DNA of 64,000 bases from an uncultured bacterium. Its GTDB lineage: Bacteria > Patescibacteriota > Minisyncoccia > Phycocordibacterales > UBA9973. The translations under genes were made by a program, and so were the position numbers. Under the pieces are notes generated by a model. That model did no database searches, was not told where the DNA came from, and saw only the letters and a program-made list of their open reading frames with translations. The stretch spans positions 226,711-290,710 of the forward strand of contig CAITGV010000001.1 of the NCBI GenBank assembly GCA_903892035.1. Direction: 5' to 3'. Positions 26,701 through 59,611 of the stretch are shown here, in pieces; the stretch's first letter is position 1; each line of letters opens with the position of its first letter.

Positions 26701-26792
26701 CTTCCTCTCCTTTACAAGGAGAGGATACAGGAGAGGTTCTTAATTAATGCACCTCTCCCCAACCCCTCTCCTTATTAATGAGAGGGGGGGGG
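26701..26792. repeat. Second-family palindromic repeat (CCTCTCC/GGAGAGG modules), intergenic copy
   Basis: Hairpins CCTCTCCTTTACAAGGAGAGG and CCCCTCTCCTTATTAATGAGAGGGG. Shares CACCTCTCCCCAACCC(C)TCTCCTTA with the copy at 35234-35333. The G-run creates a spurious upstream ATG for ksgA. Confidence 0.75.
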
Positions 26793-26801
26793 AAATACAA
26801 T

Positions 26802-27653
26802 ATGTACCACAAAGCAAAAAAATCAATGGGTCAAAATTTTTTGAAATCGGCAAAGGCTTTGTCGCAAATTATTTCGGCGGGAGAAATAAATTTGCGGGAC
26901 ACAGTGCTTGAAATTGGTCCAGGAAAGGGGGCACTGACAGAAAAACTTTTAGAGACTAGTTGCACTGTTGTCGCTGTAGAAAAAGACAAATCTCTTTTTG
27001 AATTTTTAAATGAAAAATTTGCAGAATACATAAAAAATAAAAAATTAATTTTAACTGAAGACGATATATTAGAATTTGATATTTCAAAATTAAAGATACA
27101 AAATAAAAATTACAAGATTGTAGCCAACATTCCCTACAACATCACTGGTGCAATATTGAAAAAATTTCTTTCAAGCGAAAATCAACCTGCGAGTATGACA
27201 CTCTTGGTACAAAAAGAAGTCGCGGAGCGTATAGTGACTCGTGATAAAAAAGAAAGCATTCTTTCAGTGAGTGTGAAAGTTTACGGAATGCCAAAATATA
27301 TAGCAAAAGTTCCAGCACGGTATTTTTCTCCTGCACCAAAAGTTGATTCTGCGATAATTCATATTGGGGGGATTAATAAAGAGAAATTTAATACACCTCT
27401 CTCTAGCTCAATCCTCAATGAGCACATTGACCTACTGGGTTGTAAGGAGAGAGGACAGACTCCTGAAGATTGGTTTTTTACAGTTGTAAAAACTGGTTTT
27501 GCGCATAAGAGAAAAATGGCTATAAGTAATTTGTCTGAAATACTAAAAAGGGAAGATCTAGGTAAAGCATTTGCGACACTGGAAATTTCCGAAAAAGCTC
27601 GCCCAGAAGAAATCCCCACAGAAAAATGGCTTGCATTGTCAAAGATGCTATAA
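26802..27653 (+). CDS. rsmA: 16S rRNA (adenine1518/1519-N6)-dimethyltransferase RsmA/KsgA
   Basis: MGQNFL, EIGPGKGALT, NIPYNIT motifs. Start placed at the ATG after the repeat, not at 26778. Confidence 0.8.
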   Translation: MYHKAKKSMGQNFLKSAKALSQIISAGEINLRDTVLEIGPGKGALTEKLLETSCTVVAVEKDKSLFEFLNEKFAEYIKNKKLILTEDDILEFDISKLKIQNKNYKIVANIPYNITGAILKKFLSSENQPASMTLLVQKEVAERIVTRDKKESILSVSVKVYGMPKYIAKVPARYFSPAPKVDSAIIHIGGINKEKFNTPLSSSILNEHIDLLGCKERGQTPEDWFFTVVKTGFAHKRKMAISNLSEILKREDLGKAFATLEISEKARPEEIPTEKWLALSKML

Positions 27654-31467: not shown

Positions 31468-34400
31468 GTGCATATGAAAAAAAAGAATTTCATACAAAAA
31501 ATATTGATTGGCTTCATGCTCTGCGTGATTCTTCTCGCGCCTGTTTCTTTGTCTTTAAATAAAAATGATATAAAGAATTTTCTGGGAGGAAATAGAGCCG
31601 AAGCAGCAACGACACCAAATGCCATTCATGCGTCAAAATGGTATTACGTAAGTGATATTTCAGCTACAAGTGTAGGGAATACATCACTTACTTTAAAATT
31701 TAGTTTTAAAAAAATTGATAAATTAAGCATAGCTGTTGAAAGCTACGCAATATTAGTTTCTGTAAATGATGCAAACAATTTTACTACAACAAATGGGATA
31801 TCAACGGTAATTGCTGACGTTGAACCAACAACACAAAGTTGGGCAGATTCACCTGACACAATACCCGACCAAACTGCTACTTTTAATGACTTTTTCCCAG
31901 TAAGAGCACCTACTGACTATTACTTAAAAGCCAAATCAAATCAAACGGTAGGTTTTTTGCTTGGAAATATGGGTCTTTATTCTGATCCAATAAAAGTAAC
32001 CACCTTAGATAAAAACAACTCAATAGACCAACAAAATCAAAATGATCCAAATGCACTAAATTTAACTAATCCTGATCAAATTGATGTAAGTAATGACTTT
32101 AGTTGTGGATTTATTTCTAAAGATTCAAGCATACTGGGTTGTGTTGTTAAAATTACCTATTATGTTGTTTTTGTGCCTGCATCATGGGTATTTGAGTTAA
32201 CTGGAAAATTGTTTGATTTCTTTATTGGATACAGCTTGGACAGTAAATCTTACAGCGGATCAAGCATGATAACTGAAGGTTGGAAAATTGTTCGTGACAT
32301 TTCAAATATATTTTTTATATTTATTTTACTTTACGTTGCCATTGCAACAATTTTAGACTTACATGGTTTTGAAGCAAAGAAAATGATTGGTACTGTGGTC
32401 GTAATTGCAGTATTAATTAACTTTTCATTGTTTTTTACTCAAGTAATTATTGATACAGGAAACATTGCTGCTCGGGTTTTTTATAATGGAATTACAGTAA
32501 ATGGTCCAGACGGAACAGAGCTCAACTCAACTAATGGAAAACAACTTTCTGTTGCAATTGTAAATCAGTTTAAACCTCAGAAAATGTTTAATAAAACATT
32601 ACTAAACGAAAGCACCAGCATAAAGGATAGTAGCGGTAATATTGCGCAATTGGGTACTTCCGGTTATCAGGGATTTTTCATAATTATTACATTAATCGCA
32701 GCAGCAATTTGTTTACTTGGTGCTTACACATTCTTTATGTCTGCTTTTATCTTTCTCGGACGTGTGATTCAACTATGGATTTCAATGATATTCGCCCCTT
32801 TTGCTTTTGTTTCATATGTTGTTCCTGGCGCAAAAGGCATGAAGGGAATTGGTGCAGACTCTTGGTGGAAAGATTTACTTGGAAATGCATTTTTGGCACC
32901 AATTTTTATATTCTTCATTTATTTAATTATTCGATTTTTGAAAATAATCACGATCATTAACATTAGTAACGACGCATCACTTATGAGTATTGTGATGTCA
33001 ATCGTTATTCCTCTCTTAATTATAACTTTCCTTTTGATCAAAGCTCGTAAGATTGCCGAGAGTTTGGCGGGGGACATCGGTGGATATATGGTTACAGCGG
33101 CAAAAGCTGTGGGTGGCACTATTGTTGGAGCATCGATGGGTATTGCAGCTGTGGCTGGAAGGCAGACTGTGGGAAGAGGAGCAAACTGGCTTTCAAGCAA
33201 TAAAACTCTTGCAGAATGGTCATCTGGTAAAAAAGGTTGGGTAGCGCAAGCTCTTGCAAAACCTTTGTCATCGAAAGTAAATACACTTTCAAAATCAAGC
33301 TTTGATGTTCGTAATAGTGCTGGTGGCCAACAAGTTTCATCTCTCACTGGCTTTAACTTAAATAATGCAGGGACAAAATTTGCAACACTCGATACTGCAA
33401 ATACTGCTGGTGGTTGGGTAGGTAAACAGGCTCGCCAAGCTCAAAAAGAAAAAGAAATTGCCGAAAATCTAAACAAAGGTTACGACAAGGCTTTGTTTGA
33501 ACAACAAGATGAAGAAGTCCACCACAGAGAAGAAAAAATTCATGAGAAAGAAGAAGAAATTGCTGCAAAAACACTTAGTAGAGACCAGTTTACAAGAGGT
33601 ACACCACAATGGGAAGAAAATAATAAAGAATTGGCATTAATGAAACAAAATCTTTCAGTATTAAAAACTGGAGGGGTTATGAGAAAATATGTTGAAAAGG
33701 ATGAAATTGATCCTAATACAGGAGAAAAAACAGGTAATAAAATTAAAGTACTCGAAAATGAAAAAGATGCCGATGGTAAAGACAAAAAAACTGATGGCCT
33801 ATCAAAGATGCAGGGTGACCTTGCTAGAATTAAAACTGCACCGGAGACAGAATACTATGCAAATAAGCGTCGTGAATCTGGCCAGGTATTTATGGACGAC
33901 GAGCGTGACAAAAATGGAAACATTAAAAGATTTGGCAGACGCGTCACAGCAAACAATGCAGCTGCATATGAAACAGAAAGACTTACAAAGGATATAAGAA
34001 AACTCAATAACGAAATCGAAACAAGAAGAACAAAAAATCCAAATGATCCGAAAATCAAAGAGTTTGGTGAAAAAGTAACAGATTACGAAAAGAAAATTGG
34101 GGTATTACAATCTGAAAAAACTCTGGTTGATACTTTCCACAAAGATGCTTCGCAAGCAAAAAATAATGTTGCTTCACTAACAAAAGAAATACAAACACTA
34201 TATAAAAAAGGTGATCTAACAACTGCAGATAGAGCAACTATTGCTGAAAAGGAAGCTAAAATTAAAAACGAAACCGCAAAACTTACACCAAATGACGCAG
34301 TTAGTAAGGCAATGAAAAACCAAAAAGACTTAATTGGTGATATTAACTTCAAACAAGGAATGAAACAAATTGGAAAAGAAGCTGTTAAAGGATTCTTTGC

Positions 34401-34725
34401 TGGAGTTACTGATTGGCGTTCATGGGCTACTGCAACAGTCGGTTCAGCTATGGGTAAAAGTTTTGCAAAAGTATTGCTTGGAACTGGGGGTGGGGCTTTC
34501 GAATCAGTAAAACGCGTACTTATGGACTATAGTGGAAGAATGAATCAAGATATTGCAAAAGCGGCGGCGGCGAAGTTTGGAAAGTCTACATATGAAGCTC
34601 CGTCTGGAGGAGGTCACGGAGGTGGTGGACACGATGACCATCATGAAGAAGCACACGCTCCAGCATCAAATGGACACGGAGCAGGAGGTCACGATGATCA
34701 CGGTGGGGGAGGAAATAAACATTAG
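31468..34725 (+). CDS. VirB6/TrbL-like polytopic membrane protein with extracellular N-domain and long cytoplasmic coiled-coil tail
   Basis: Signal peptide and ~230-aa exodomain, at least 6 TM helices in the central region, then a ~550-aa charged coiled-coil C-terminus ending in a His/Gly-rich tail (GGHGGGGHDDHHEE..GGHDDHGGGG). This architecture is typical of Gram-positive-type VirB6 homologs. Confidence 0.5.
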   Translation: MHMKKKNFIQKILIGFMLCVILLAPVSLSLNKNDIKNFLGGNRAEAATTPNAIHASKWYYVSDISATSVGNTSLTLKFSFKKIDKLSIAVESYAILVSVNDANNFTTTNGISTVIADVEPTTQSWADSPDTIPDQTATFNDFFPVRAPTDYYLKAKSNQTVGFLLGNMGLYSDPIKVTTLDKNNSIDQQNQNDPNALNLTNPDQIDVSNDFSCGFISKDSSILGCVVKITYYVVFVPASWVFELTGKLFDFFIGYSLDSKSYSGSSMITEGWKIVRDISNIFFIFILLYVAIATILDLHGFEAKKMIGTVVVIAVLINFSLFFTQVIIDTGNIAARVFYNGITVNGPDGTELNSTNGKQLSVAIVNQFKPQKMFNKTLLNESTSIKDSSGNIAQLGTSGYQGFFIIITLIAAAICLLGAYTFFMSAFIFLGRVIQLWISMIFAPFAFVSYVVPGAKGMKGIGADSWWKDLLGNAFLAPIFIFFIYLIIRFLKIITIINISNDASLMSIVMSIVIPLLIITFLLIKARKIAESLAGDIGGYMVTAAKAVGGTIVGASMGIAAVAGRQTVGRGANWLSSNKTLAEWSSGKKGWVAQALAKPLSSKVNTLSKSSFDVRNSAGGQQVSSLTGFNLNNAGTKFATLDTANTAGGWVGKQARQAQKEKEIAENLNKGYDKALFEQQDEEVHHREEKIHEKEEEIAAKTLSRDQFTRGTPQWEENNKELALMKQNLSVLKTGGVMRKYVEKDEIDPNTGEKTGNKIKVLENEKDADGKDKKTDGLSKMQGDLARIKTAPETEYYANKRRESGQVFMDDERDKNGNIKRFGRRVTANNAAAYETERLTKDIRKLNNEIETRRTKNPNDPKIKEFGEKVTDYEKKIGVLQSEKTLVDTFHKDASQAKNNVASLTKEIQTLYKKGDLTTADRATIAEKEAKIKNETAKLTPNDAVSKAMKNQKDLIGDINFKQGMKQIGKEAVKGFFAGVTDWRSWATATVGSAMGKSFAKVLLGTGGGAFESVKRVLMDYSGRMNQDIAKAAAAKFGKSTYEAPSGGGHGGGGHDDHHEEAHAPASNGHGAGGHDDHGGGGNKH

Positions 34726-34811: not shown

Positions 34812-35615
34812 ATGGACAAAGAAAAAGTAATGCAAAGAATAAAAGAAGCTTATGAAATTTTGCCTGAAGATATTCAGAAGGCAATTATGGATTCAAGCTA
34901 TCAAGAAACTCTTACTGACATTGCAAAAAATAATAAACTTACTTACGAGCAACTTGGAAGTTTGGAAATGCAAACTACAATGGTAATGCTCGGTCTCACG
35001 CACCCAAATAGTTTCCGCCACGACCTAGGCGAAGATTTGGAAATTAAAGACCAAGAACTCTTGAAAAAAATTGTTGAAGAAGTGAATGAAAGAATATTTA
35101 AAAATATTCGTGAATCACTCCAAGCAATACATGAAGTAAATGAATCTGACACCGACGACGACAATGAAACTTTTTGGAAAGTTGGTCACGAAAATGAAAA
35201 AGTGCCAGGCGATGGGGAAGATGAAGAGGAAATCACCTCTCCCCAACCCTCTCCTTATAAAGGAGAGGGAGCCCAACCCGCAGTTTCCCCCCTCATTAAT
35301 AAGGAGGGGGGTCAGGGGGGAGGTTCTTCTGACATCTTCAAAAAATCCGGCATTGAATTTATAAACCCCGTAGTAAAAGTTCCAACCCCAATTCCACAAC
35401 CGACAGATACCGAAAGAAATAAAATATTAAGTGGTGTAGAAAACCCTATCGCTGGAACATCGGCAATGAATGTCCCACCCAAAGAAAGTATTTTAGAAAA
35501 AAAACTTACAACTTCTTTTGGTTTGCCAAAAGTTGAAAGTGATCATACTGTTCCGAATATCACAAAAGCTGAAGATAAAAAAGTAAGTAGTGATCCGTAT
35601 CGAGAAGCAATCTAA
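34812..35615 (+). CDS. Acidic hypothetical protein carrying an in-frame palindromic-repeat insertion
   Basis: 267-aa ORF. Residues ~141-175 (ITSPQPSPYKGEGAQPAVSPLINKEGGQGGG) are encoded by a copy of the CCTCTCC/GGAGAGG repeat. Confidence 0.45.
   Translation: MDKEKVMQRIKEAYEILPEDIQKAIMDSSYQETLTDIAKNNKLTYEQLGSLEMQTTMVMLGLTHPNSFRHDLGEDLEIKDQELLKKIVEEVNERIFKNIRESLQAIHEVNESDTDDDNETFWKVGHENEKVPGDGEDEEEITSPQPSPYKGEGAQPAVSPLINKEGGQGGGSSDIFKKSGIEFINPVVKVPTPIPQPTDTERNKILSGVENPIAGTSAMNVPPKESILEKKLTTSFGLPKVESDHTVPNITKAEDKKVSSDPYREAI
35234..35333. repeat. Second-family palindromic repeat copy located inside a CDS
   Basis: CACCTCTCCCCAACCCTCTCCTTATAAAGGAGAGGG...CCCCCCTCATTAATAAGGAGGGGGG. The second hairpin is the reverse complement of the CTCCTTATTAATGAG module at 26770-26790. 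Confidence 0.75.
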
Positions 35616-36025
35616 TGCAATTCAAAGTTCCACAATTTATCGATGTTGAAGACAAGATTTTTGGGCCTTTCAGCTTCAAGGAATTTGCTTACATAGTCGG
35701 AGGCCTAGGTGCTTCATATGTAGTTTATAAAATAATGCCTTTAATTTTAGGTATTTTTCTTATAATCCCCATTCTTGCTCTTGCTGGGGCTCTGACATTT
35801 ATAAAAATCAACAATAGACCATTTATCGATATTCTTCAGTCGGCTTTTCAATACGCATTTCAAGATAAACTTTATGTTTGGAAAAAAGCTCAAAAGAAAA
35901 AGAAAAAAGTTGAAGAGGTGGTCGCAACAGAAAGTTTGGTTCCACGTTTATCTGAAAGTAAATTGAAAGATTTATCTTGGAGTTTAGATGTTTTGGATGC
36001 AAGAAAAAATAGTACTCCAAAATGA
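35615..36025 (+). CDS. VirB3/PrgI-like small membrane protein (two TM helices)
   Basis: 136 aa with two adjacent hydrophobic helices, sited immediately upstream of VirB4, as for PrgI/TcpE/VirB3. Assignment rests on position and topology only. Confidence 0.35.
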   Translation: MQFKVPQFIDVEDKIFGPFSFKEFAYIVGGLGASYVVYKIMPLILGIFLIIPILALAGALTFIKINNRPFIDILQSAFQYAFQDKLYVWKKAQKKKKKVEEVVATESLVPRLSESKLKDLSWSLDVLDARKNSTPK

Positions 36026-36137
36026 AATATTTATAAAAAAAGTCCTCGGGTCTCCTCATCTACGATTCGGCCAGACATTTTTTTATTAACATTTCATTTT
36101 TACGTACAAAGTCACATAACAATGATATAATAAATTT

Positions 36138-36827
36138 ATGGCAGTTAATGCAAAATCGACACAAGGATTTGTACCAATAAAAGAAGTACGCGATGGCATA
36201 GTAATCCTCAAAGATGGGGGAGTGCGCGCAATTCTTATGGCTTCTTCTGTAAACCTTTCACTAAAATCTGCCGATGAACAACGCGCGACAATTGCACAAT
36301 TTCAATCCTTTTTAAATTCTCTAGAATTTTCTACACAAATTGTTATTCAATCTCGCCGTCTAGACATCCGCCCATACCTTTTAACCCTAGAAACTAGAAT
36401 GAAGGATCAACTTGAACCATTGTTAAAAGTTCAAACTCGTGAATATATTGAATTTATCCGTTCATTCACAGAACAAGTAAATATAATGACAAAAAACTTT
36501 TTTATAGTTGTCCCATATTCAACTCCTGCAATTTCACCAGAGGGTGGAATAATGCAATTCTTAGGAATGTCGAAAAAATCTGGCAAAACAGGGGACAAAA
36601 AAGGTGATGCTTTGATTGATTTCGAAGAAAAAAGAAGCCAACTCGAACAACGCACAAGCATTGTTTCCGACGGTCTTTCAAGAATTGGAGTACGGACGGT
36701 GATGCTCGGCACAGAAGAAGTGATAGAATTGTTTTATAAGACTTTCAATCCAGGCGACACGAGTCAGGGTGTAGCACTGCCAGGAAAAGAAAGTGAGGGT
36801 GACGCAAATAAACAACCAAAACAATAA
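36138..36827 (+). CDS. VirB4-family ATPase, N-terminal domain encoded as a separate ORF
   Basis: FVPIKEVRDGIVILKDGGVRAILMASSVNLSLKSADEQ matches the conserved N-terminus of Gram-positive-type VirB4 (TrsE/PrgJ/TcpF). Stop TAA 36825-36827 is followed after 1 nt by the ATG of the next ORF. Confidence 0.6.
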   Translation: MAVNAKSTQGFVPIKEVRDGIVILKDGGVRAILMASSVNLSLKSADEQRATIAQFQSFLNSLEFSTQIVIQSRRLDIRPYLLTLETRMKDQLEPLLKVQTREYIEFIRSFTEQVNIMTKNFFIVVPYSTPAISPEGGIMQFLGMSKKSGKTGDKKGDALIDFEEKRSQLEQRTSIVSDGLSRIGVRTVMLGTEEVIELFYKTFNPGDTSQGVALPGKESEGDANKQPKQ

Positions 36828-36828
36828 T

Positions 36829-38667
36829 ATGAGCATAATAGACGATTTGTTTGGAAAAAAAAATACGAAGGTTGGAACAGACAAACAAGTCCTGCCTGTT
36901 TTGCCGTCTGAAATTTACGAAGCAGCAACTCTAGACTTCCAAGACATCATAGCTCCCTCTGCTTTGCGTGTTGAACCAAAAGCACTAAATCTTGGAGAAA
37001 AATTGGCGCGCACTTATTTTGTCATTTCTTACCCTCGATATCTTACAGACAATTGGTTTTCACCAATCATCAATCTCGATAAAATTTTTGATGTTTCAAT
37101 TTTTATTCACCCGATAGATACAGCAGTAGTATTAAGGCAATTTCAAAAAAAAGTTGCCGAAGTTCAAAGCCAAATAAACGAACGTTCAAAAAAGGGTCTG
37201 GTGCGCGACCCAATGCTCGACACTGCATACCAAGACTTGGAAGGCCTGCGCAACAATTTAATGCAAGCTCAAGAAAAAATGTTTGACGTCGGACTCTACA
37301 TCACAATGTATGCTGACAATGAAAATGAACTTTTCAAAATTGAAAACGAAATCAAATCAATTTTAGAATCTCGCCTAGTATATTTTAAACCAGCTCTCTT
37401 CCAGCAAGAAGAAGCTTTCAAGAGCGTAATGCCGACTGGCACCGACCTCCTAAATATTCACCAAAAATTAAATTCTGAACCACTCTCATCAATTTTTCCT
37501 TTCGTTTCTTTTGACCTCACTTCGGATAAAGGAATTCTTTACGGCGTGAATCGCCACAATTCTAGTCTTGTTATTTTTGATCGTTTCTCTTTGGAAAATT
37601 ACAACTCTATCACTTTTGCAAAATCTGGTTCTGGAAAATCATACGCTACAAAATTGGAAATCATTCGTACATTAATGTTTGATACAGAGGTAATAGTTAT
37701 CGACCCCGAGCGTGAATACGAATACCTTGCAGAAGCCATCGGTGGAAGATATTTCAATATCTCTCTTTCTTCAGATCACCATATCAACCCTTTTGATTTG
37801 CCAATACCAAGAAGTGATGAAAATCCTGCGGACATTTTGCGTTCAAATATCATAAACCTCGTCGGTCTTTTCCGTATTATGCTCGGAGGCTTAACTCCTG
37901 AAGAAGATTCAATTATCGATCGCGCAATCAGTGAAACTTACGCGCTTAAAGATATTTCAGCAGAATCAGATTTTTCAAATATCGAGCCACCACTTTTGTC
38001 TGATTTCGAAATGGTTCTATCTGGAATGGAGGGGAGTGAGTCTATTATTCAACGTCTTACAAAATACACTCGTGGCACGTGGTCTACTTTCATAAACCAG
38101 CCTTCAAATGTGGATATAAATCGTAAATTTGTCGTTTTCTCTGTACGTGATATGGAAGACGAGCTAAAACCAGTGGCAATGTACATAGTCACTCACTTTA
38201 TCTGGAATGCTGTTCGCAAAAACTTAAAAAAGAGGCTTCTTGTTGTGGATGAGGCATGGTGGATGATGAAATCTGACGACACAGCCTCTTTCCTTTACTC
38301 AATTGCAAAACGAGGCCGTAAATATTTCCTTGGTCTTGCGACAATTACCCAAGACGTCGGCGACTTTATGAAAAGCCCGTACGGTGTGCCAATTGTCACA
38401 AACTCTTCAATTCAAATGCTTTTAAAACAATCACCTTCGACTATCGACCTACTACAAAAGACCTTTAACCTTACAGATGAAGAAAAATATCTACTCCTTG
38501 AGTCAAATGTGGGGGAGGGCATATTCTTTGCGGGACTCAAACACGTTGCAATTAAAATTATTTCATCATATACGGAAGACCAAATTATTACTTCCGACCC
38601 ATCGCAGGTTTTAGCAATAAAAAAAGCAAAGGATGATTTGGCGGCAAGTGAATCTGGGCAGAAATAA
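36829..38667 (+). CDS. VirB4-family conjugation/T4SS ATPase, core and C-terminal ATPase domain
   Basis: RTYFVISYPR (VirB4 middle-domain motif), Walker A ITFAKSGSGKSYA, Walker B LLVVDEAWWMM. Confidence 0.8.
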   Translation: MSIIDDLFGKKNTKVGTDKQVLPVLPSEIYEAATLDFQDIIAPSALRVEPKALNLGEKLARTYFVISYPRYLTDNWFSPIINLDKIFDVSIFIHPIDTAVVLRQFQKKVAEVQSQINERSKKGLVRDPMLDTAYQDLEGLRNNLMQAQEKMFDVGLYITMYADNENELFKIENEIKSILESRLVYFKPALFQQEEAFKSVMPTGTDLLNIHQKLNSEPLSSIFPFVSFDLTSDKGILYGVNRHNSSLVIFDRFSLENYNSITFAKSGSGKSYATKLEIIRTLMFDTEVIVIDPEREYEYLAEAIGGRYFNISLSSDHHINPFDLPIPRSDENPADILRSNIINLVGLFRIMLGGLTPEEDSIIDRAISETYALKDISAESDFSNIEPPLLSDFEMVLSGMEGSESIIQRLTKYTRGTWSTFINQPSNVDINRKFVVFSVRDMEDELKPVAMYIVTHFIWNAVRKNLKKRLLVVDEAWWMMKSDDTASFLYSIAKRGRKYFLGLATITQDVGDFMKSPYGVPIVTNSSIQMLLKQSPSTIDLLQKTFNLTDEEKYLLLESNVGEGIFFAGLKHVAIKIISSYTEDQIITSDPSQVLAIKKAKDDLAASESGQK

Positions 38668-38768: not shown

Positions 38769-39752
38769 ATGAAAAGAATTTTATTTTCTTTCTTGATATT
38801 GGCTATATTTATGCCTTTTTCTCTGGCTCTTGCTGCTGGTCAAGTTTCAGCTTCAAGTATAAACGTCGCAATCAATCCTGAAGTTCCAGGACCAAATACA
38901 AATACTTCAATAACACTTTCGAGCTATGCGACAGACATAAATCGTGCATTAATCTCCTGGACACTAGACGGGAAGACGATGCAGTCTGGTATTGGAAAAA
39001 CAATTTTTTCTTTCACTACAAAAGGCGTAGGAACAGCCACAACAGTTACGGTAAATATAAGTATTGATTTACAACCCGCAATTACAAAAACAATAGTCAT
39101 TACTCCCGCAGATGTAGATATGCTTTGGGAAGCTATCGATTCATATGTGCCACCTTTCTACAAAGGTAAAGCCATGCCAAGCTCTGAAGCAAAAATAAAG
39201 GTCACAGCAATGCCCAATATAAAAGGCGCAAACGGAGTAAAAATAAAATCTTCAGATATGGTTTACAATTGGAAACACAATTACGACAACGATCCAAACG
39301 GTTCTGGTTACGGAAAAGATTCCTACATAGTAAATGCAAATTATTTAAATAATTCTGAAATTGTTGATTTGAGTGTTTCGTCAGTAAGCAATTCTAGTGC
39401 AGCATCGGGTAGGGCAGTGCTCGTGACTGGGGACCCTAAAATTGTTTTTTATCAAAAGGATCCACTTGAAGGAATAAAGTATGAAAATGCTTTAAAAACT
39501 GATTTAAATCTCTCAACAGATGAGACAACCTTGGTCGCAGAACCATATTTCTTTTCACCCGCTGATATAAATTCTTCAAAATATAAATACACATGGAACA
39601 TAAATGGTAGCGCAGTGGACACTCCAGCAAAAAAGAATGTGATGACTCTTCGAAAAGGACCAACTGGAGGAACTGCAAATATTTCTCTAGAAATCGAAAA
39701 CGTATTAAAATTATTCCAAGACGCAAAGCAGAATTTAAACATTAACTTCTAA
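38769..39752 (+). CDS. Secreted hypothetical protein (signal peptide, Ser/Thr/Asn-rich)
   Basis: Signal peptide MKRILFSFLILAIFMPFSLALAAG. Predicted beta-rich extracellular protein within the T4SS-like cluster. Confidence 0.45.
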   Translation: MKRILFSFLILAIFMPFSLALAAGQVSASSINVAINPEVPGPNTNTSITLSSYATDINRALISWTLDGKTMQSGIGKTIFSFTTKGVGTATTVTVNISIDLQPAITKTIVITPADVDMLWEAIDSYVPPFYKGKAMPSSEAKIKVTAMPNIKGANGVKIKSSDMVYNWKHNYDNDPNGSGYGKDSYIVNANYLNNSEIVDLSVSSVSNSSAASGRAVLVTGDPKIVFYQKDPLEGIKYENALKTDLNLSTDETTLVAEPYFFSPADINSSKYKYTWNINGSAVDTPAKKNVMTLRKGPTGGTANISLEIENVLKLFQDAKQNLNINF

Positions 39753-41890
39753 TGAAAATGAATAAAAAAATTAAAATAATTTTTCTATCCGCCTTATTGA
39801 TAATCACCGGATTTTTTGCAATCAAAGCAAGCGCTGCAACACCAGCAGGTTTTACAGGAACAACAGTAGCTGACGGCTCTACTTTATATAAATATGACTC
39901 AACTTGTGCAGTTGGTGCTGGAATATTCAAAAAACAACGCGGAATAATTGTCCCAACCAATGCAACGTCTGTATCAAAAGGTTACATATATTTCCATGGA
40001 TTAAACACATCCACAAACCCAACATCAGACTACATGTGTACTACTTCAGGACTTTGTGCTTCAGCAAAAGCTGAAAATTCAGTCATTTTTACACCTGAAA
40101 CAAATGTTACGGGACAGACTGCTCAAACAGTAGGATACAAAGATGAATTTGATTGTTTCATACAGGAAGCAAAAACAAAACTTCAATCACTTCATATTGG
40201 TGTTCCAAATACAATTGATATTGCAGGTCACAGTGCAGGAGCAAAACTTGTAATGAATACAGTGAACCTTGCGCCAGGGTTTTCCACAAGTAGTAGGGTG
40301 GACGCAATTATTTTTGATGGTTGCTATGGAAATTGGTGTAATCAAATTATTGCCTCGCCCCACACAAATCATGTATATCTTTACTATCAAACTCAAGATA
40401 CAGACGGTACTGGTCCACTTTCAATTGCCGCATATAATACAAATAAAACAAAAGCAAGTATTTTAAAAGTTGAGGCTGGACACTATAGAATTCCTGCAAA
40501 ATGTTTTATGGACCACATAAATGGAGATAAGTGTGGTGCTCCTGAAGTTCCTTCAGACCAAGGTTACAACGTAGATGTAAAACAGGTTGCGGGAACGGTG
40601 GCAAATTCTTCAAAAATTACGGTCACATATAGCGGTTTTACTGAAACAACTCCAGCTAGAATAAATATGGAATATGCAAGTGCTGCAGAAAATGACAGCC
40701 CAGCACAAAGTGCAACAATATCCATGACCGCAAGTTCAAGTCCTCAAACAATAGAAAAAACTTTTAGTAACCTTACAGACCAAACAGAATATAGAATTAC
40801 GGTTACAGAAGATAAATCGTTCGACGACCCTAGTAGATTATCGTATAGTGACCCTGTAACTTTTACTCAATCAACTGTAATAAATGGCAACGGGGATAAC
40901 AAACTTGATTGTAGTGATCCAAAAAATACAGACAATCAGGATTGTAAATGTACAACAGGGTATTGTTTACTTCAACCAATTGCGGGATTAAAAACTATTC
41001 CAGATAGTACATCAATTTCTACATATTTAAATATAATGTTTAAAATTGGTATTGGTCTAGCAGCTGTCCTTGCTGTGATAATGATCGTCATCGGTGGAAT
41101 ACAATATATGTCCACAGATGCAATATCTGGAAAAGAAGACGGCAAACACCGCATCAAGGGCGCTCTCACTGGCCTCATCCTCGCTCTCGGTGCATGGGCA
41201 CTTCTAAACACAATCAACCCCGACCTCGTCCTCATAAAACTCGACCTCAAAAGCGCACAAGTTAAGATAGACACCTCAAGTGTCGACGTACCAGCAACTA
41301 ATCTAACCACAGGCTCTCCTGTTTGTGGTGGTAAATACAAAGTTGGAGACGTATGGCAAGCAGATGATGTTATTAGAAAAAAATACACTGATACTTTTGG
41401 AAGCAGTTCAGTTAATGTTGGAAATTGTAAAACAGTTGGACAACATTCTTGTACCAGTCTTGCAGGGCTTCCAGATAGCACATACTCAGGTATGAAAAAA
41501 TTAGAAGATGCAATAATTAGTGCTCAAGTTAATATTCTACCTGGACCATCTTGTAAGGATTACACTTGTCTAGAAATCACAGGAGGTACTGAATGTTGGG
41601 ACCATGGGAACAGTCAAAGTACGCACATACCAGGAAGTGATGTTGTTGATTTGCTTAATAGTAACCAGTTAAATCAATTTTTAACAACTTTTGCAAATGG
41701 ATCAAATAATAATAAAGGATATACAAGAACTATAGGTCAATTTGGTTTAACACCAAATGCAACTCTCTATGTTTATCAATGGGGAGGAACAGGTAATGAT
41801 TATTTATCTATAGTTCACGAAACAGTACCAGACCATTTTCATGTTTTAAGTTGGATGGGACCACCACCGGCACAGTGGCCAAAACAATAA
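39752..41890 (+). CDS. Secreted multidomain protein: alpha/beta-hydrolase-like (GHSAG) N-domain + VirB2-pilin-like TM hairpin + Cys-rich C-domain
   Basis: Signal peptide. Nucleophile-elbow motif DIAGHSAGAKLV. Two hydrophobic helices separated by a short charged loop (IGIGLAAVLAVIMIVIGGIQYM-STDAISGKEDGKHRIKG-ALTGLILALGAWALLNTI), as in VirB2/TrbC pilins. C-terminal ~200 aa has 10 Cys. Confidence 0.5.
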   Translation: MKMNKKIKIIFLSALLIITGFFAIKASAATPAGFTGTTVADGSTLYKYDSTCAVGAGIFKKQRGIIVPTNATSVSKGYIYFHGLNTSTNPTSDYMCTTSGLCASAKAENSVIFTPETNVTGQTAQTVGYKDEFDCFIQEAKTKLQSLHIGVPNTIDIAGHSAGAKLVMNTVNLAPGFSTSSRVDAIIFDGCYGNWCNQIIASPHTNHVYLYYQTQDTDGTGPLSIAAYNTNKTKASILKVEAGHYRIPAKCFMDHINGDKCGAPEVPSDQGYNVDVKQVAGTVANSSKITVTYSGFTETTPARINMEYASAAENDSPAQSATISMTASSSPQTIEKTFSNLTDQTEYRITVTEDKSFDDPSRLSYSDPVTFTQSTVINGNGDNKLDCSDPKNTDNQDCKCTTGYCLLQPIAGLKTIPDSTSISTYLNIMFKIGIGLAAVLAVIMIVIGGIQYMSTDAISGKEDGKHRIKGALTGLILALGAWALLNTINPDLVLIKLDLKSAQVKIDTSSVDVPATNLTTGSPVCGGKYKVGDVWQADDVIRKKYTDTFGSSSVNVGNCKTVGQHSCTSLAGLPDSTYSGMKKLEDAIISAQVNILPGPSCKDYTCLEITGGTECWDHGNSQSTHIPGSDVVDLLNSNQLNQFLTTFANGSNNNKGYTRTIGQFGLTPNATLYVYQWGGTGNDYLSIVHETVPDHFHVLSWMGPPPAQWPKQ

Positions 41891-46628: not shown

Positions 46629-46825
46629 GACAATACAATACACCATTTATACGAAAAAATCAAATTATTTTACCCATTTAAAAACAGGGGATAGAGACAC
46701 ACCAAAATATCCTTTAGTACCAAGCTTATTTTAGTAAAAATATTCTTATCAACAGCTTATCAACATAGTAATGAAGTTATACAGTGTTTCCCCTTTTCAA
46801 TTCTGAGTATTATAATAGGGAAGCT
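46629..46825. promoter_or_regulatory. rpmH/dnaA intergenic region with tandem DnaA-box-like motifs (oriC-associated / dnaA promoter)
   Basis: cTTATCAACAgcTTATCAACA (two 8/9 matches to TTATCCACA), plus an AT-rich stretch. Confidence 0.5.
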
Positions 46826-48184
46826 ATGGAAGATACAAAAAAAGTTTGGGAAAATTGTTTGGGTGAAATTGAACTTGGAGTTTCTAAGGCAAATTTCAGT
46901 ACATGGTTTAGAAATACTCATATAATTAAAGAAGAGATGGGGTCAGTCTATCTTGGTGTGCCAAATGAATTCGTGAAAGATTGGTTATTGAATAAATACC
47001 ATAAATTAATACTAAAGACTTTAATGGGTTTTCATGAAGACATCCGCTCTTTGGAATATGTAATTGTAAAAAATGAAGGTGGACATAAAGAAAATCAACC
47101 ACAAGTATCTGAGACAGCAAAACCAATGCCGAATAAAGAATTACCTTTGGCAGATTTATATATAAACAAAGACGATAACCTGAACCCACGTTACATCTTT
47201 GATTCTTTTATTGTTGGATCATTCAATGAGCTTGGCTACGCAGCGGGGCAGGCCATCATTAAAGCTCCTGGGACAGCCTACAACCCGTTTTTTATATACG
47301 GCCCGACAGGTTTAGGTAAAACACATTTAATACAAGCTATAGGCAATTCCATCAAAGCTAAATATACAGAAAAAAAAGTTCACTATATTACTTTAGAAAA
47401 ATTTGCTACAGACCTCGTGAATGCACTTCAAACAAACAAAGCAAATTCATTTAAAGATAAATATAGAAAATATGATGTTTTAATCATCGACGATATCCAA
47501 TTTGTGGGGAAGATGGAAAAAACCCAAGAGGAACTGTTTCATACCTTCAATACTTTTCATGAAAACCAGAAACAGATTATTTTTTCATCTGATAAACACC
47601 CAAACTACATCCCAGGGCTAGAAGATCGTTTAAAATCAAGGTTTTCGGCTGGTATGATCGTAGATATCAACGAACCAGAGATAGAATCTCGTATAGCAAT
47701 ACTGAAAGCAAAAGTAAAAGATAGTGAGTATTTGATACCAGATGAAATCATAGAATACATAGCTTCGTCGATACAAGGAAACATTCGAGAATTAGAAGGA
47801 AGTTTAAATGCTATTGTATGCCAAACGGGGGTAAAAGGAAGATCTCTTTCATTGAGTGAAGTTAAAAGTTTAATCAAAAATAATATTAAACCAAAGAAAA
47901 ATATCTCTGTGAAAGAAGTGGTTAAAGTTGTTTCTGAGTTTTATAATGTCGACGAAATGACAATATATGAAACAACAAGGAGAAAAGAGATTGTGAAAGC
48001 AAGGCAAATGGTAATGTTTATTTTACGTGAGGACTTCAATGTATCTTACCCATTAATAGGTCAGAAACTCGGGGGTAAAGACCACACAACAGTAATACAC
48101 TCATGTTTAAAGATAAAAGAGGGAATTAAAAATGATCCATCAATTTTACAAGAATTAGAGCAATTACGTGCAATGTTTAAATAG
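46826..48184 (+). CDS. dnaA: Chromosomal replication initiator DnaA
   Basis: GPTGLGKTHL Walker A, DDIQF, C-terminal DNA-binding helix. Start set at MEDTKKVWENCL to give the canonical N-terminus. Confidence 0.9.
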   Translation: MEDTKKVWENCLGEIELGVSKANFSTWFRNTHIIKEEMGSVYLGVPNEFVKDWLLNKYHKLILKTLMGFHEDIRSLEYVIVKNEGGHKENQPQVSETAKPMPNKELPLADLYINKDDNLNPRYIFDSFIVGSFNELGYAAGQAIIKAPGTAYNPFFIYGPTGLGKTHLIQAIGNSIKAKYTEKKVHYITLEKFATDLVNALQTNKANSFKDKYRKYDVLIIDDIQFVGKMEKTQEELFHTFNTFHENQKQIIFSSDKHPNYIPGLEDRLKSRFSAGMIVDINEPEIESRIAILKAKVKDSEYLIPDEIIEYIASSIQGNIRELEGSLNAIVCQTGVKGRSLSLSEVKSLIKNNIKPKKNISVKEVVKVVSEFYNVDEMTIYETTRRKEIVKARQMVMFILREDFNVSYPLIGQKLGGKDHTTVIHSCLKIKEGIKNDPSILQELEQLRAMFK

Positions 48185-48402
48185 TGTTGATAATTTTGTG
48201 GATAAAGTAGTGAAAAAGATTGTTAATAAAAATATAAAGTGGGGATAAAAATTTAATAATTTTTTAAAAAAAAGTTATTAAATAGATTACACACAAAAGA
48301 TATCAAAAATAAAACAGTAAATAGGTTGATAAATATAAACAAAAGATACTTATCCACTTATCCACATGTATAGTATTAATAGTAATTTAATATATAGAAT
48401 AT
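48185..48402. other. Candidate oriC: AT-rich dnaA-dnaN spacer with multiple DnaA boxes
   Basis: TTGTGGATAA (perfect box, reverse orientation), GTGGGGATAA, and tandem TTATCCACTTATCCACA. Highly AT-rich with A/T tracts. Confidence 0.6.
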
Positions 48403-49500
48403 ATGAAACTCAACTGCACAACCGAAAAAATAAAAAACGCCATTTCAATAACTGAAAGAGTTACTGGTAAGAATTTAACATTACCAATTTTATCTTCAAT
48501 ACTTTTAATCGCATCTGGTAAATCACTTAAAATAAGAGCAACAAATCTTAGTATTGGTGTTGAGGTTGAAATACCTGCCACTATTGAAAAAGAAGGTGTA
48601 GCTGCTGTTTCTGGAGATATATTAAATAATTTATTTACCAATATAAATACAAATCAAGAAATTAATATAAGTTTAGAAAATGATAATTTATTAATACAAA
48701 CAAAAAATAATAAAATAATACTAAAAAATTTTTCGCCAGATGATTTCCCAACAATTCCAATAGTTAAAGGTGAAAGTATTACAATACCATCAAATAAATT
48801 TATAGATGGTATTAAATCTGTATATTACGCTTCAGCTATATCTGATATAAAACCAGAAATTGGAAGTATTTATATTTACCAGGAAAATGATAATTTAGTT
48901 TTTGTAGCTACAGATTCTTTTCGTTTAGCTGAAAAGAAAATTAAAATTAAAAATATTGAAAACTTTCCAGCAATATTAATTCCATTTAAAAATATAGTTG
49001 AAATACTTAGAATTTTTAGTGACATAAATGATGATATTAAAATTTGTTTTAGTAAAAACCAAATATCATTTTCATCCAAAAATATATATTTTACATCGAG
49101 AGTTATAGACGGAATTTTCCCAGACTATAAACAAATTATTCCGAAAAATCATACAACTGAAATAATAATCTTAAAACAAGATCTTTTAAATTCCCTTAAA
49201 ATGTCAAATGTATTTTCTGATAAATTTAATCAAATAACATTTCAAATTCAACCAAAAGAAAAACTTTTTGAATTGAAATCAAAAAATAATGATATTGGTG
49301 AAAATACTACAAAATTGGATGCTTCCCTATCTGGGGTGAGTATAGTAGCGAACTTTAATCAAAAATATTTACTGGACTGCATACAGTCTATAAAAGAGGA
49401 TAGTATTGTTTTACAAATGGTTGGCGATAATAAACCCCTAGTAGTTTCAGGGCTTTCAAATCAAAGTTTTATGTATTTAATAATGCCAATGAATAGATAA
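48403..49500 (+). CDS. dnaN: DNA polymerase III beta sliding clamp
   Basis: 365 aa immediately after dnaA. Three-domain clamp pattern (LKIRATNL...VEVEIPA, MPMN C-terminus). Confidence 0.85.
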   Translation: MKLNCTTEKIKNAISITERVTGKNLTLPILSSILLIASGKSLKIRATNLSIGVEVEIPATIEKEGVAAVSGDILNNLFTNINTNQEINISLENDNLLIQTKNNKIILKNFSPDDFPTIPIVKGESITIPSNKFIDGIKSVYYASAISDIKPEIGSIYIYQENDNLVFVATDSFRLAEKKIKIKNIENFPAILIPFKNIVEILRIFSDINDDIKICFSKNQISFSSKNIYFTSRVIDGIFPDYKQIIPKNHTTEIIILKQDLLNSLKMSNVFSDKFNQITFQIQPKEKLFELKSKNNDIGENTTKLDASLSGVSIVANFNQKYLLDCIQSIKEDSIVLQMVGDNKPLVVSGLSNQSFMYLIMPMNR

Positions 49501-49501
49501 A

Positions 49502-49759
49502 ATGGAATATATTCAAATAGGACAATTTTTACAAAAATTTGAAGTTGTTTTAAGTGATGATAAGGCTAAAAAAATATTAGTACAAAAAATATTAAAAAAT
49601 AATATTAATTTTGATATTGATTTAAATAATATAAAAATAAAAGACGGAGTAGTCTCAATTTTAGGCAGTGGTACTCTAAAGAACGAGATTTTCTTAAAAA
49701 AAGAAAAAATCGAAAAAATGATAAATGAAGGGACTTCAAATTTAAGAAGTATTCGTTAA
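49502..49759 (+). CDS. Small DUF721-like protein
   Basis: 85 aa after dnaN. Pattern ...KIKDGVVSILG...resembles DUF721 proteins common in dnaA-dnaN-recF regions. Weak assignment. Confidence 0.3.
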   Translation: MEYIQIGQFLQKFEVVLSDDKAKKILVQKILKNNINFDIDLNNIKIKDGVVSILGSGTLKNEIFLKKEKIEKMINEGTSNLRSIR

Positions 49760-58494: not shown

Positions 58495-58612
58495 TTTAAG
58501 CCTATTTTCCCTATTGACATTTAAGCTTAAAAGTGATATACTAGTAGCTGTAGAGGTGTTCTTTACATGTAAACAATTAAATAATAAATAAATACATACA
58601 TAATTAAAAACA

Positions 58613-59611
58613 ATGAAAAAGGTAATCTTAGTAGTCCTTGTTCTGGCGACCACAGGTTGCCTAGGACAAAACCTGTTGCCATACAGGAATCCAAATGGCA
58701 AATGGAACATTAGAAGTTCTTGGTACGATTCTGCAAAGGTGGAGAGAATAAATAATCTTAACCACAGAATAAACAAAGAACTTCCTCAGTATAAACTGAG
58801 AGATGTCACCATCGGAGACTTGCCGGCTATTGAAGCCAGTGAAAGGCAAGTAGAAATAAGCACTCGCGGTGCAAACGGCGAGAAGCTTAATTTGGATCAC
58901 GCAATTGATCCACGCTCCAAAAAAGATATGCTTACCTATTCTCATGCTGAGAAAAGACAAGCATATCAGTACAACCCGAAGCTTTTTGGGGGACCTGATT
59001 TTTGGTGGAGTGAAAGGTTGGTATCTTGTGGAAATTTTTGGGATGGTATAGAGTTCGAGGAGTATAAGGCTTCTCTGACACTATCTCAAAATTCTCCTGC
59101 GAGTACTGGTAATGCCACTGGTTCAAACACCGTGGTAATATCAAAAGTTGATACAGTTTACATGCATGATACGGTTTGGGTTGAAAGACCCAATCAAAAC
59201 TATGCTGGTAATCAATATCAACAACCTTATGGTAACCAGTATGGTTACCAACAACCAATTTATGGATCAGCTTACTATGTTGAAAGCCAACCCTATTATT
59301 GGGGAGTATCTCAACCAGTTTGTTGGTCACAGTCAAACTGCCAGCATTATAATTATACTTATCAAGGTAGAAGTTATAATTGCAGGCAACGTCCAGTTGT
59401 TCAACAGAGAAGTGGATCACCGGTAAATGCTCCAACGGGGTATGTACATGGTGTTTCTCCTGTAAATGGACCAACTGGCTACACTCATTCTGGTGGCCCG
59501 ACAAATTCCGGCAACGGACTGTACGGACCAACAAATGGTTCAAATGGTTCCCATTTTCACAGTGTTGGAAATGGTGCCACCCAAGCGCCTCATGGGTTAA
59601 TGAGACATTAA
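58613..59611 (+). CDS. Lipoprotein with Gln/Tyr/Asn-rich low-complexity C-terminal half
   Basis: Lipobox LATTGC after the signal peptide. C-terminal QYQQPYGNQYGYQQPIYG repeats. Confidence 0.5.
   Translation: MKKVILVVLVLATTGCLGQNLLPYRNPNGKWNIRSSWYDSAKVERINNLNHRINKELPQYKLRDVTIGDLPAIEASERQVEISTRGANGEKLNLDHAIDPRSKKDMLTYSHAEKRQAYQYNPKLFGGPDFWWSERLVSCGNFWDGIEFEEYKASLTLSQNSPASTGNATGSNTVVISKVDTVYMHDTVWVERPNQNYAGNQYQQPYGNQYGYQQPIYGSAYYVESQPYYWGVSQPVCWSQSNCQHYNYTYQGRSYNCRQRPVVQQRSGSPVNAPTGYVHGVSPVNGPTGYTHSGGPTNSGNGLYGPTNGSNGSHFHSVGNGATQAPHGLMRH

Follow-up and report, generated by a model that had tools for sequence, protein, structure and literature searches.

The closest described relatives of the locus analysed here are the type IV secretion systems (T4SSs) of Patescibacteria, whose gene clusters lie near dnaA, dnaN and ksgA (Quinonero-Coronel et al. 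2025, Microb Genom, PMC12102498). Among the genes of these organisms are 2,272 that code for homologues of TrsD, 1,664 of which adjoin virB4; TrsD is described there as a homologue of unknown function, and the one belonging to Ca. Southlakia epibionticum is stated to be essential (PMC12102498). The essential cluster of this organism comprises SEML1_0006-0019 (Wang et al. 2023, PMC10633639). The main text of Guglielmini 2014, for its part, does not name TrsD. A TrsD-like gene beside virB4 is a published and near-universal feature of Patescibacterial T4SSs, and Pfam and NCBIfam models for it exist. The two-gene VirB4 arrangement that we discuss below is real, normal, ancient and already published; it is neither an error nor a new discovery.

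The window, by which we mean the whole stretch of 64,000 nucleotides that was analysed, contains a T4SS cluster flanked by the genes for KsgA (26778-27653), DnaA (46784-48184) and DnaN (48403-49500), and its GC content is uniform, about 0.37, across the cluster. Directly upstream of the split virB4, on the same + strand, is the gene for a small PrgI/VirB3-like membrane protein of 136 aa (35615-36025; Pfam PF12666, PrgI, 33.2 bits against a cut-off of 27), and the order PrgI-then-VirB4 is found also in public gene calls and beside P0222, a fused relative to which we return. Farther upstream, a protein of 1085 aa with several long hydrophobic stretches (31468-34725, +) matches no Pfam family and is a VirB6-type candidate by its position only, as in monoderm T4SS clusters. 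On the other side, a protein of 712 aa (39752-41890, +) has a T4SS pilin domain at residues 419-488 (PF18895, T4SS_pilin, 29.6 bits against a cut-off of 26.6). A Pfam scan of the 27 larger ORFs, several of which matched no family, turned up neither a relaxase nor a coupling protein.

ORF1 (36138-36827, +) begins with ATG, ends with the TAA at 36825-36827 and codes for 229 aa; ORF2 (36829-38667, +) begins with the ATG at 36829, has a stop codon ending at 38667 and codes for 612 aa. The junction reads TAA-T-ATG (36825-36831, +), with a lone T at 36828 between the ORFs, and the frame of ORF2 is +1 relative to that of ORF1. In these particulars the original prediction was accurate: it described two adjacent ORFs with one nucleotide between them, halves that total about 840 aa, a canonical VirB4 length, and no obvious Shine-Dalgarno sequence before the second. 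The exact total is 841 aa, against 752-894 positions in VirB4 models, and no Shine-Dalgarno-like core is present within the 20 nt upstream of ORF2. Its absence tells us nothing about the junction, because 46 of the 48 genes in the window are likewise without one and just two carry one.

The ORF2 frame is open upstream of its ATG for 35 nt, back to a GTG at 36793, and both frames are open between 36793 and 36827. This GTG, which has AGGA 8 nt upstream, was considered as the start of ORF2 and rejected in favour of the ATG at 36829, because an ATG that aligns with it starts ORF2 in nearly all of the 79 related loci described below, because in most of those loci that ATG is closely preceded by a stop codon in its frame, because public gene calls use ATG 36829, and because the 624-aa protein that the GTG would produce is missing from the protein collection. 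Where the N-terminus of an ORF2 homologue differs, its start is within a few codons of the same position.

What do the two ORFs encode? ORF1 aligns to positions 101-233 of the 894 in the NCBIfam VirB4_plasma model, and to positions 9-118 of the 752 in the model of CD1110-family VirB4; these coordinates indicate that it corresponds to the first part alone, about 180-200 residues, of the canonical VirB4 N-terminal domain. It matches the TrsD/TraD model (NF041427) as well, over positions 15-142 of 201, with 28.5 bits and an E-value of 1.2e-6. Since the curated cut-off of that model is 200 bits, ORF1 falls outside the TrsD/TraD subfamily, and its link to TrsD of pGO1 is one of remote homology only. 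The precomputed annotation assigns PF26593 (TraC-like) to ORF1 and to all 120 of its best homologues listed, every one of which is 211-235 aa long; our local Pfam scan of ORF1 returned no family, presumably because that copy of Pfam has no PF26593 model. The motifs FVPIKEVRDG..LK.G and NLSLKS..EQ form the invariant core of the ORF1 family. Many other members of this family have long, low-complexity C-terminal tails of 300-440 aa, and in a haloarchaeal relative the module is fused to a transmembrane region, not to VirB4.

A direct sequence search of ORF1 against the PDB produced chance matches only (best E 0.22), and it is at the level of the predicted fold alone that homology to solved VirB4 structures becomes visible. 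The AF2 model of ORF1, built from an alignment of 91 sequences, has a pLDDT of 88.9; it supersedes an earlier model built from 18 close homologues, which had a pLDDT of 61.7 and yielded Foldseek E-values of 0.013 or worse. When the PDB was searched with the newer model, the 14 best Foldseek matches were all TrwK/VirB4 chains of R388 (E 2.6e-4 to 1.5e-2, probability 1.00, about 220 aligned columns), and the next match beyond them had an E-value of 0.096 and a probability of 0.23, so that TrwK/VirB4 accounts for the only significant matches of the modeled structure. The Foldseek output gives no aligned residue ranges, and hence it is the coordinates of the sequence models that place ORF1 on the N-terminal part of TrwK.

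ORF2, which is the core of VirB4, encodes the rest of the N-terminal domain followed by the C-terminal ATPase domain. It scores 380.4 bits (E 1.7e-113) against the NCBIfam model of CD1110-family VirB4 (NF045971), above the cut-off of 325, and covers positions 182-733 of the 752. No one polypeptide covers this model full-length, and since its positions are divided between ORF2 and ORF1 (9-118), the content of the family is present but spread over two genes. ORF2 matches Pfam P-loop_TraG (6.7e-25) and the VirB4 C-terminal domain of PDB 4AG5 (1.9e-38), and its residues 259-555 align to residues 446-735 of TrwK. Walker A, AKSGSGKS, occupies residues 264-271 (37618-37641, +) and Walker B, LLVVDE, residues 470-475 (38236-38253, +); G267 and K270 of the former and D474 and E475 of the latter are invariant in alignment A2. 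About 250 pre-ATPase residues, the remainder of the VirB4 N-terminal domain, are retained in ORF2 ahead of these motifs. The original prediction placed the VirB4 N-terminus in the first ORF and Walker A and B in the second, and both placements have stood up; profiles and fold agree, too, in relating ORF1 to VirB4 rather than to some other protein. Its division of the pair into an N-terminal domain and a core ATPase was right in order and homology but not in extent, because ORF1 accounts for only about 180-200 residues and ORF2 keeps the 250 or so that precede the ATPase. By these alignments the chain breaks within the VirB4 N-terminal domain, not where that domain meets the C-terminal one.

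Natural fusions, which are rare (P0222, P0270 and a protein of Vescimonas), reveal how the two halves fit together: in each they are contiguous through a variable linker, and always in the order ORF1-then-ORF2. In P0222 (797 aa), which adjoins PrgI, rnpA and dnaA in another Patescibacterial MAG, residues 1-221 of ORF1 align to 1-225 and residues 38-602 of ORF2 to 231-796. In the PrgI-VirB4 fusion of Vescimonas (942 aa), residues 11-131 of ORF1 align to 132-251 and residues 67-589 of ORF2 to 368-925. By alignment the two ORFs are complementary, collinear and non-overlapping; they are not duplicates. A weak BLAST match between ORF1 and the post-junction part of P0270 (E 0.001) hinted that a tandem duplication might underlie the VirB4 N-terminal domain. 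This idea was ruled out when the ORF1 and ORF2 families, compared profile against profile, showed no match (probability 0.2%, E 0.34), which means that ORF2 holds no copy of the ORF1 module.

The same split recurs in related genomes. Relatives of ORF1 are encoded in 513 species-representative genomes, and at all 79 related loci in species genomes whose sequence continues downstream, an ORF1 homologue ending in a stop codon is directly followed by an ORF2 homologue. The gap between them varies from -4 to 283 nt; a single nucleotide is the commonest (19/79), and the spacer is 6 nt or less in 47 of the loci and longer than 30 nt in 19. Each of the three relative frames is represented (30/26/23), and ORF1 always has its stop codon, even in the 26 loci where the ORFs share a frame and are separated by this stop and a few codons. 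In the same genomes ORF1 is 63-73% identical to its homologues and ORF2 74-89%, from which it can be seen that ORF1 evolves faster. Identity in both ORFs is about 0.8-0.95 at codon position 2 and about 0.4 at position 3, a pattern that shows strong purifying selection on each.

In the R388 machine, the N-terminal domain of VirB4 docks the ATPase onto VirB3 and the membrane platform, and VirB4 is present in central and outer copies. We consider it highly probable that the locus is a chromosomal type IV secretion cluster of a Paceibacteria/Nomurabacteria-like Patescibacterium in which VirB4 comes from two separate, co-oriented genes, and that the two polypeptides, as seems most likely, come together without a covalent link to restore a full VirB4 protomer. 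In such a protomer ORF1 would form the surface by which the ATPase docks onto PrgI/VirB3 and the membrane platform.

Alternatively, ORF1 might be a diverged accessory protein, descended from the VirB4 N-terminus but no longer completing the ATPase, and ORF2 a VirB4 that is naturally short at its N-terminus; ORF1 might then act as an assembly factor, a regulator or a partner of PrgI. The faster evolution of ORF1, the long tails of many of its relatives and the haloarchaeal fusion to a transmembrane region are what one might expect of such a protein. We nonetheless think it unlikely, because ORF1 and ORF2 cover full-length VirB4 collinearly and without overlap, because independent natural fusions join them in the canonical order, because the two are near-universally adjacent in the clade, and because the fold of ORF1 matches the N-terminal region of VirB4 and nothing else.

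If the protomer is indeed rebuilt from two polypeptides, how are these made? The box TGaTATAAT (36123-36131, +), an extended -10-like element read from the sequence 6 nt before the ATG of ORF1, may serve as the promoter of a leaderless mRNA for ORF1 and ORF2. Hexamers of the -10 type are enriched at position -12 in related loci: of 77, 25 have one starting there and 44 have one starting at -15 to -11, against a background of 0-5 per position; the TG extension is present in 29 of the 77, and the same geometry occurs at 15 of the 48 genes in the window. There is no terminator-like site on the + strand between ORF1 and ORF2, and an Rfam scan of the window found four tRNAs only, none of them, nor anything else, near the junction. 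Probably both ORFs are transcribed into one mRNA, with its 5' end at or very close to the ATG of ORF1 and the extended -10 box as its promoter; we found no literature on leaderless translation in Patescibacteria. Because the genome hardly uses Shine-Dalgarno sequences, we propose that ORF2 would be translated by ribosomes that terminate at the UAA and restart at the AUG one nucleotide later. Translational coupling of this kind, which the original prediction had put forward, is plausible here but is not universal, given the 19 loci with spacers longer than 30 nt.

The junction could in principle be read in another way, by a programmed +1 frameshift or by bypass of the stop codon, with a fused, full-length VirB4 produced besides, or instead of, the two proteins. 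Two things speak for this: the 35 nt over which both frames are open (36793-36827), and the 26 same-frame loci, where a stop and a few codons separate the ORFs. We regard recoding as very improbable, however: the relative frame is not conserved, most loci have a stop in the ORF2 frame within a few codons upstream of the ATG, the spacers extend to 283 nt, no conserved slippery or structured element is present, the RNA around the junction being unstructured (z = +0.82), and the alignment of start codons with ATG 36829 in nearly all 79 loci points to independent initiation.

Least credible of all, and so improbable that we set it aside, is that a sequencing error or a fresh nonsense or frameshift lesion interrupts a single virB4 of 840 aa and has made of it a pseudogene, for although a single indel could fuse the frames, ORF2 being in the +1 frame and open back to GTG 36793, and although single-ORF relatives such as P0222 and P0270 do exist, over 4,151 nt that include the junction an independent assembly (Logan, run ERR4194711) is identical, several contigs of more than one source carry exactly these ORF1 and ORF2 proteins, all 79 related genomes are split at the same protein position with differing spacers and frames, both ORFs are far better conserved at codon position 2 than at position 3, and the top 120 homologues of ORF1 listed all end where ORF1 does, at 211-235 aa. 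The original prediction had offered a genuine split gene, a recent nonsense mutation and a sequencing error as alternatives; the first of these stands, and the other two are effectively refuted.

There is some practical value in this for annotation. Neither 'pseudogene' nor 'frameshift' nor 'assembly error' is a fitting label for the junction, and ORF1 is better named a VirB4 N-terminal (TrsD/TraC-like) module than a 'hypothetical protein'. We can add one small thing that is not spelled out in PMC12102498: Patescibacterial VirB4 is, by alignment, without exactly the segment that TrsD supplies, the break lying inside the N-terminal domain. TrsD thereby gains a concrete candidate role, that of the detachable piece by which VirB4 docks onto VirB3, within a secretion system indispensable to an epibiotic lifestyle. 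One can go farther, and suppose that the break is not neutral but functional, and that a separate VirB3-docking subunit allows the ratio of docking module to ATPase core to be set. We offer this as a speculation that is probably wrong; were it true, there might be ATPase protomers with and without the docking piece, reminiscent of the central and outer VirB4 copies of R388, or the module might be exchanged or regulated. The faster evolution of ORF1, its variable tails, the haloarchaeal fusion to a membrane anchor and the re-fusion to VirB4 in some lineages would fit an adaptor acting in its own right.

How, finally, does the locus compare with systems already known? From the Patescibacterial TrsD-VirB4 pair it differs in nothing of substance: in both, the gene beside virB4 codes for a small TrsD-like protein that is remotely homologous to the VirB4 N-terminus, and PrgI/VirB3 and pilin-like genes accompany the pair in the chromosome near dnaA, dnaN and ksgA, so that the window is one more instance (PMC12102498). 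In TrsD/TrsE of the staphylococcal plasmids pGO1 and pSK41, and in TraD/TraE of pIP501-type plasmids, the gene directly before that of a VirB4-like ATPase (about 600-670 aa) likewise codes for a protein of about 200 aa, and the same split, with the break at the same place, occurs in Bacillota, in Pontibacillus, Sulfobacillus pY0017 and Priestia plasmids. The Gram-positive TrsD/TraD systems serve conjugation, are carried on plasmids and include a relaxase and a coupling protein, whereas the cluster in the window is chromosomal, and neither turned up in the scan of its large ORFs. Canonical, single-chain VirB4 (TrwK of R388, PDB 7O41/8RTB; the CD1110 family; TraC of the F-plasmid) has the same total length, the same order of conserved regions, the same Walker A and B and a VirB3 neighbor, and the ORF1 model has its N-terminal fold, with the difference that here the chain is interrupted some 180-200 residues from its start. 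At the other extreme are VirB3-VirB4 fusion proteins, such as the 942-aa 'PrgI family protein' of Vescimonas fastidiosa pMM35_02, which has the modules PrgI/VirB3, TrsD-like and VirB4 core in the same order, but whereas all three form one chain there, they are encoded by three separate genes here.

ORF1, the TrsD-like (TraC-like) gene, runs on the + strand from the ATG at 36138 to the TAA at 36825–36827 (229 aa). ORF2, the VirB4 core gene (612 aa), begins at the ATG at 36829, shifted to the +1 frame with respect to ORF1, and its stop codon ends at 38667; a single T, at 36828, separates the two. This is the geometry of the original prediction, and re-reading the sequence found its coordinates exact. 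In a mechanical ORF list the frame of ORF2 reaches back to a GTG at 36793, giving a 624-aa version. We reject that start in favor of ATG 36829, because nearly every one of 79 related loci starts the gene at an ATG aligned with it, in most cases a few codons 3' of a stop in the same frame, because public gene calls begin there, and because the exact 612-aa protein is present in the public protein collection; the 624-aa version was not found there.

ORF2 is a VirB4 ATPase. On the NCBIfam model NF045971 (VirB4-like, CD1110 family; curated cut-off 325 bits) its score is 380.4 bits, only over model positions 182–733 of 752, and it matches Pfam P-loop_TraG and the crystallized VirB4 C-terminal domain, 4AG5 (E 1.9e-38). 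Residues 446–735 of TrwK, the VirB4 of R388, align with ORF2 259–555. As predicted, Walker A (AKSGSGKS, 37618–37641, +) and Walker B (LLVVDE, 38236–38253, +) both lie in ORF2; they are invariant among relatives.

ORF1 is the N-terminal piece that ORF2 lacks. Its NCBIfam matches, all below the curated cut-offs, are to N-terminal positions in two models of full-length VirB4, VirB4_plasma (101–233 of 894) and CD1110 (9–118 of 752), and to the stand-alone TrsD/TraD family (15–142 of 201). Precomputed annotations assign Pfam PF26593, ‘TraC-like’, to ORF1 and to all its listed homologues; a local Pfam scan of ORF1 returned no family, the local copy apparently being without this recent model. An alignment of 91 diverse homologues gave a confident AlphaFold2 model of ORF1 (mean pLDDT 88.9, pTM 0.79). 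Every one of its 14 best Foldseek matches in the PDB is a TrwK/VirB4 chain from the R388 type IV secretion system (T4SS), with E 2.6e-4 to 1.5e-2, probability 1.00, query TM about 0.5 and about 220 aligned columns. The next match falls sharply to noise (E 0.096, probability 0.23). The model and fold matches bear out the earlier view of ORF1 as a VirB4 N-terminus. ORF1 ends in a short charged tail of 15 residues; many TrsD-like members, such as cluster representatives P0183 and P0210, carry long low-complexity C-terminal tails (300–440 aa).

The split of virB4 is genuine and old. Two readings had been offered, a true split gene and a recent nonsense mutation or sequencing error, and only the first survives. 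At least 8000 ORF1 homologues exist; the best 120 are all 211–235 aa in length and belong to Nomurabacteria, Paceibacterota, Wolfebacteria and other Patescibacteria. With each species represented by a single genome, 513 genomes encode an ORF1 relative. Of 80 loci fetched, 79 include downstream sequence, the basis of our junction counts, and the same split, sought as a check, is present in 79/79: the ORF1 homologue ends at a stop (TAA 69, TAG 8, TGA 2), and an ORF2 homologue, 74–89% identical over its full length, comes straight after it. Spacers vary: 47 loci have 6 nt or fewer (19 of them exactly 1 nt), 13 have 7–30 nt, and in 19 the spacer exceeds 30 nt, reaching 283 nt; in one locus the genes overlap by 4 nt. 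The relative frames of the two genes are mixed (30, 26 and 23 loci), which rules out a conserved frameshift or read-through device and, equally, a recent lesion. As for a sequencing error, the Logan assembly of run ERR4194711, made independently, does not differ from the window anywhere in 4151 nt, junction included. Both ORFs are under purifying selection: identity at codon position 2 (0.77–0.95) lies far above that at position 3 (0.38–0.48). Of the two, the ATPase core is much the better conserved, at 74–89% identity against 62–73% for the TrsD-like module in the same genome pairs.

Judged by alignment, ORF1 and ORF2 are complementary halves. The best 150 of 3172 cluster representatives matching the ORF1 profile include two long proteins, which in Patescibacteria join the TrsD-like module in frame to the VirB4 core; such natural fusions are rare. 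In P0222 (797 aa), residues 1–225 align with ORF1 and 231–796 with ORF2; in P0270 (898 aa), the corresponding stretches are 12–213 and 318–892, with about 100 aa of Pro/Ala-rich linker between them. P0222 (L087:544–2937; MAG GCA_964615945.1, contig CAZTUR010000004.1) lies directly 3' of a PrgI gene, and rnpA, yidC and dnaA adjoin. In Vescimonas fastidiosa pMM35_02 (L084:3108–5936), a 942-aa protein that bears the annotation ‘PrgI family protein’ unites PrgI/VirB3, TrsD-like module and VirB4 core in a triple fusion: residues 132–251 align with ORF1 11–131, and 368–925 with ORF2 67–589. The alignment across the junction that had been proposed thus finds the halves contiguous in these fused relatives, through a variable linker. 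Profile–profile comparison of the ORF1 and ORF2 families found no similarity, and ORF2 therefore has no copy of the ORF1 module of its own. The break falls at about position 180 of a VirB4 of some 800 residues (model coordinates), ORF2 residue 87 corresponds to about 255–269 in the TraC and VirB4_CagE models, and TrwK 446 corresponds to ORF2 259; these correspondences place the break inside the N-terminal domain, not at the boundary with the ATPase domain.

Most likely, ORF1 and ORF2 reassemble into a complete VirB4 protomer. The order PrgI, TrsD-like, VirB4 core, also kept in the double and triple fusions, is conserved and supports this view. In the R388 inner-membrane complex (TrwM/VirB3-TrwK/VirB4), the corresponding part of VirB4 sits against VirB3 and the membrane; structures of this complex, PDB 8RTB and 7O41, are among the Foldseek matches, and by analogy ORF1 would form the N-terminal surface facing both. 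In haloarchaeal plasmids the module's fusion partner is a membrane anchor and not the ATPase. In Haloarcula pelagica (NZ_CP126164.1) it is the N-terminus of a 556-aa protein (L083:3977–5647) with several hydrophobic segments resembling membrane spans in its C-terminal half, and a VirB4-like 761-aa protein (L083:5644–7929) follows directly.

No Shine–Dalgarno sequence precedes ORF2, as had been noted, yet this is uninformative because only 2/48 window genes have any Shine–Dalgarno-like core; 77/79 ORF1 starts and 69/79 ORF2 starts in the related loci are without one. An extended −10-like box, TGaTATAAT (36123–36131, +), stops 6 nt short of the ORF1 ATG. Its position is conserved: among 77 related loci, a −10-like hexamer starts at −12 in 25 and from −15 to −11 in 44 (elsewhere 0–5 per position). 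In 15/48 window genes a −10-like TATAAT box, often extended, likewise ends about 6 nt before the start codon, for example upstream of 13741–14655(−), 17806, 27661, 34812, 38769 and 42025. Boxes so close to start codons suggest leaderless mRNAs for the first genes of operons and, with so few Shine–Dalgarno-like cores, that leaderless mRNAs are widespread in this lineage, a subject on which a literature search found nothing. No + strand terminator-like site was found between ORF1 and ORF2, and the junction RNA is computed to be unstructured, so the simplest route to ORF2 would be restart of terminating ribosomes at UAAUAUG. Restart is not obligatory: 19 loci have long spacers.

The T4SS genes (roughly 27.6–41.9 kb) are surrounded by housekeeping genes, among them KsgA (26778–27653), DnaA (46784–48184) and DnaN (48403–49500), and GC content is uniform across the cluster region. 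It falls to 0.247 at 48001–50000 (dnaN and the following spacer, beside dnaA; window mean about 0.36), a candidate replication-origin region. Upstream of the cluster core, a 1085-aa membrane protein ends in a Gly/His/Asp-rich tail, GGGHGGGGHDDHHEEAHAPASNGHGAGGHDDHGGGGNKH (34600–34725), which may bind metal or be of low complexity. A T2SSE/PilB-type secretion ATPase (56770–58776, −; Pfam T2SSE, E 1.3e-116), some 15 kb away from the T4SS cluster, probably belongs to a type IV pilus system.

The two-gene VirB4 is the standard, already published organization of this lineage. Our sole addition is to show that what Patescibacterial VirB4 lacks is exactly the segment TrsD provides, and that the gene is broken within the N-terminal domain; through this complementarity, ‘TrsD, function unknown’ becomes a testable hypothesis. 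[quoted passage not shown] 2025 (PMC12102498), with 2272 homologues in Patescibacteria, from 2221 assemblies, 1664 of these homologues being virB4-associated, and the homologue of Ca. Southlakia epibionticum ML1, whose essential T4SS was described by Wang et al. 2023 (PMC10633639), is itself essential (PMC12102498). Patescibacterial T4SS clusters often lie near dnaA, dnaN and ksgA (PMC12102498), and the window fits that description in detail. Plasmids of Bacillota share this architecture, with the break in the same place: 274 + 621 aa in Pontibacillus, the second annotated as a CD1110-family VirB4; 231 + 606 aa in Sulfobacillus thermotolerans pY0017; 240 + 640 aa in Priestia megaterium; and, in pGO1-type plasmids, the TrsD/TrsE arrangement, with its dedicated NCBIfam model.
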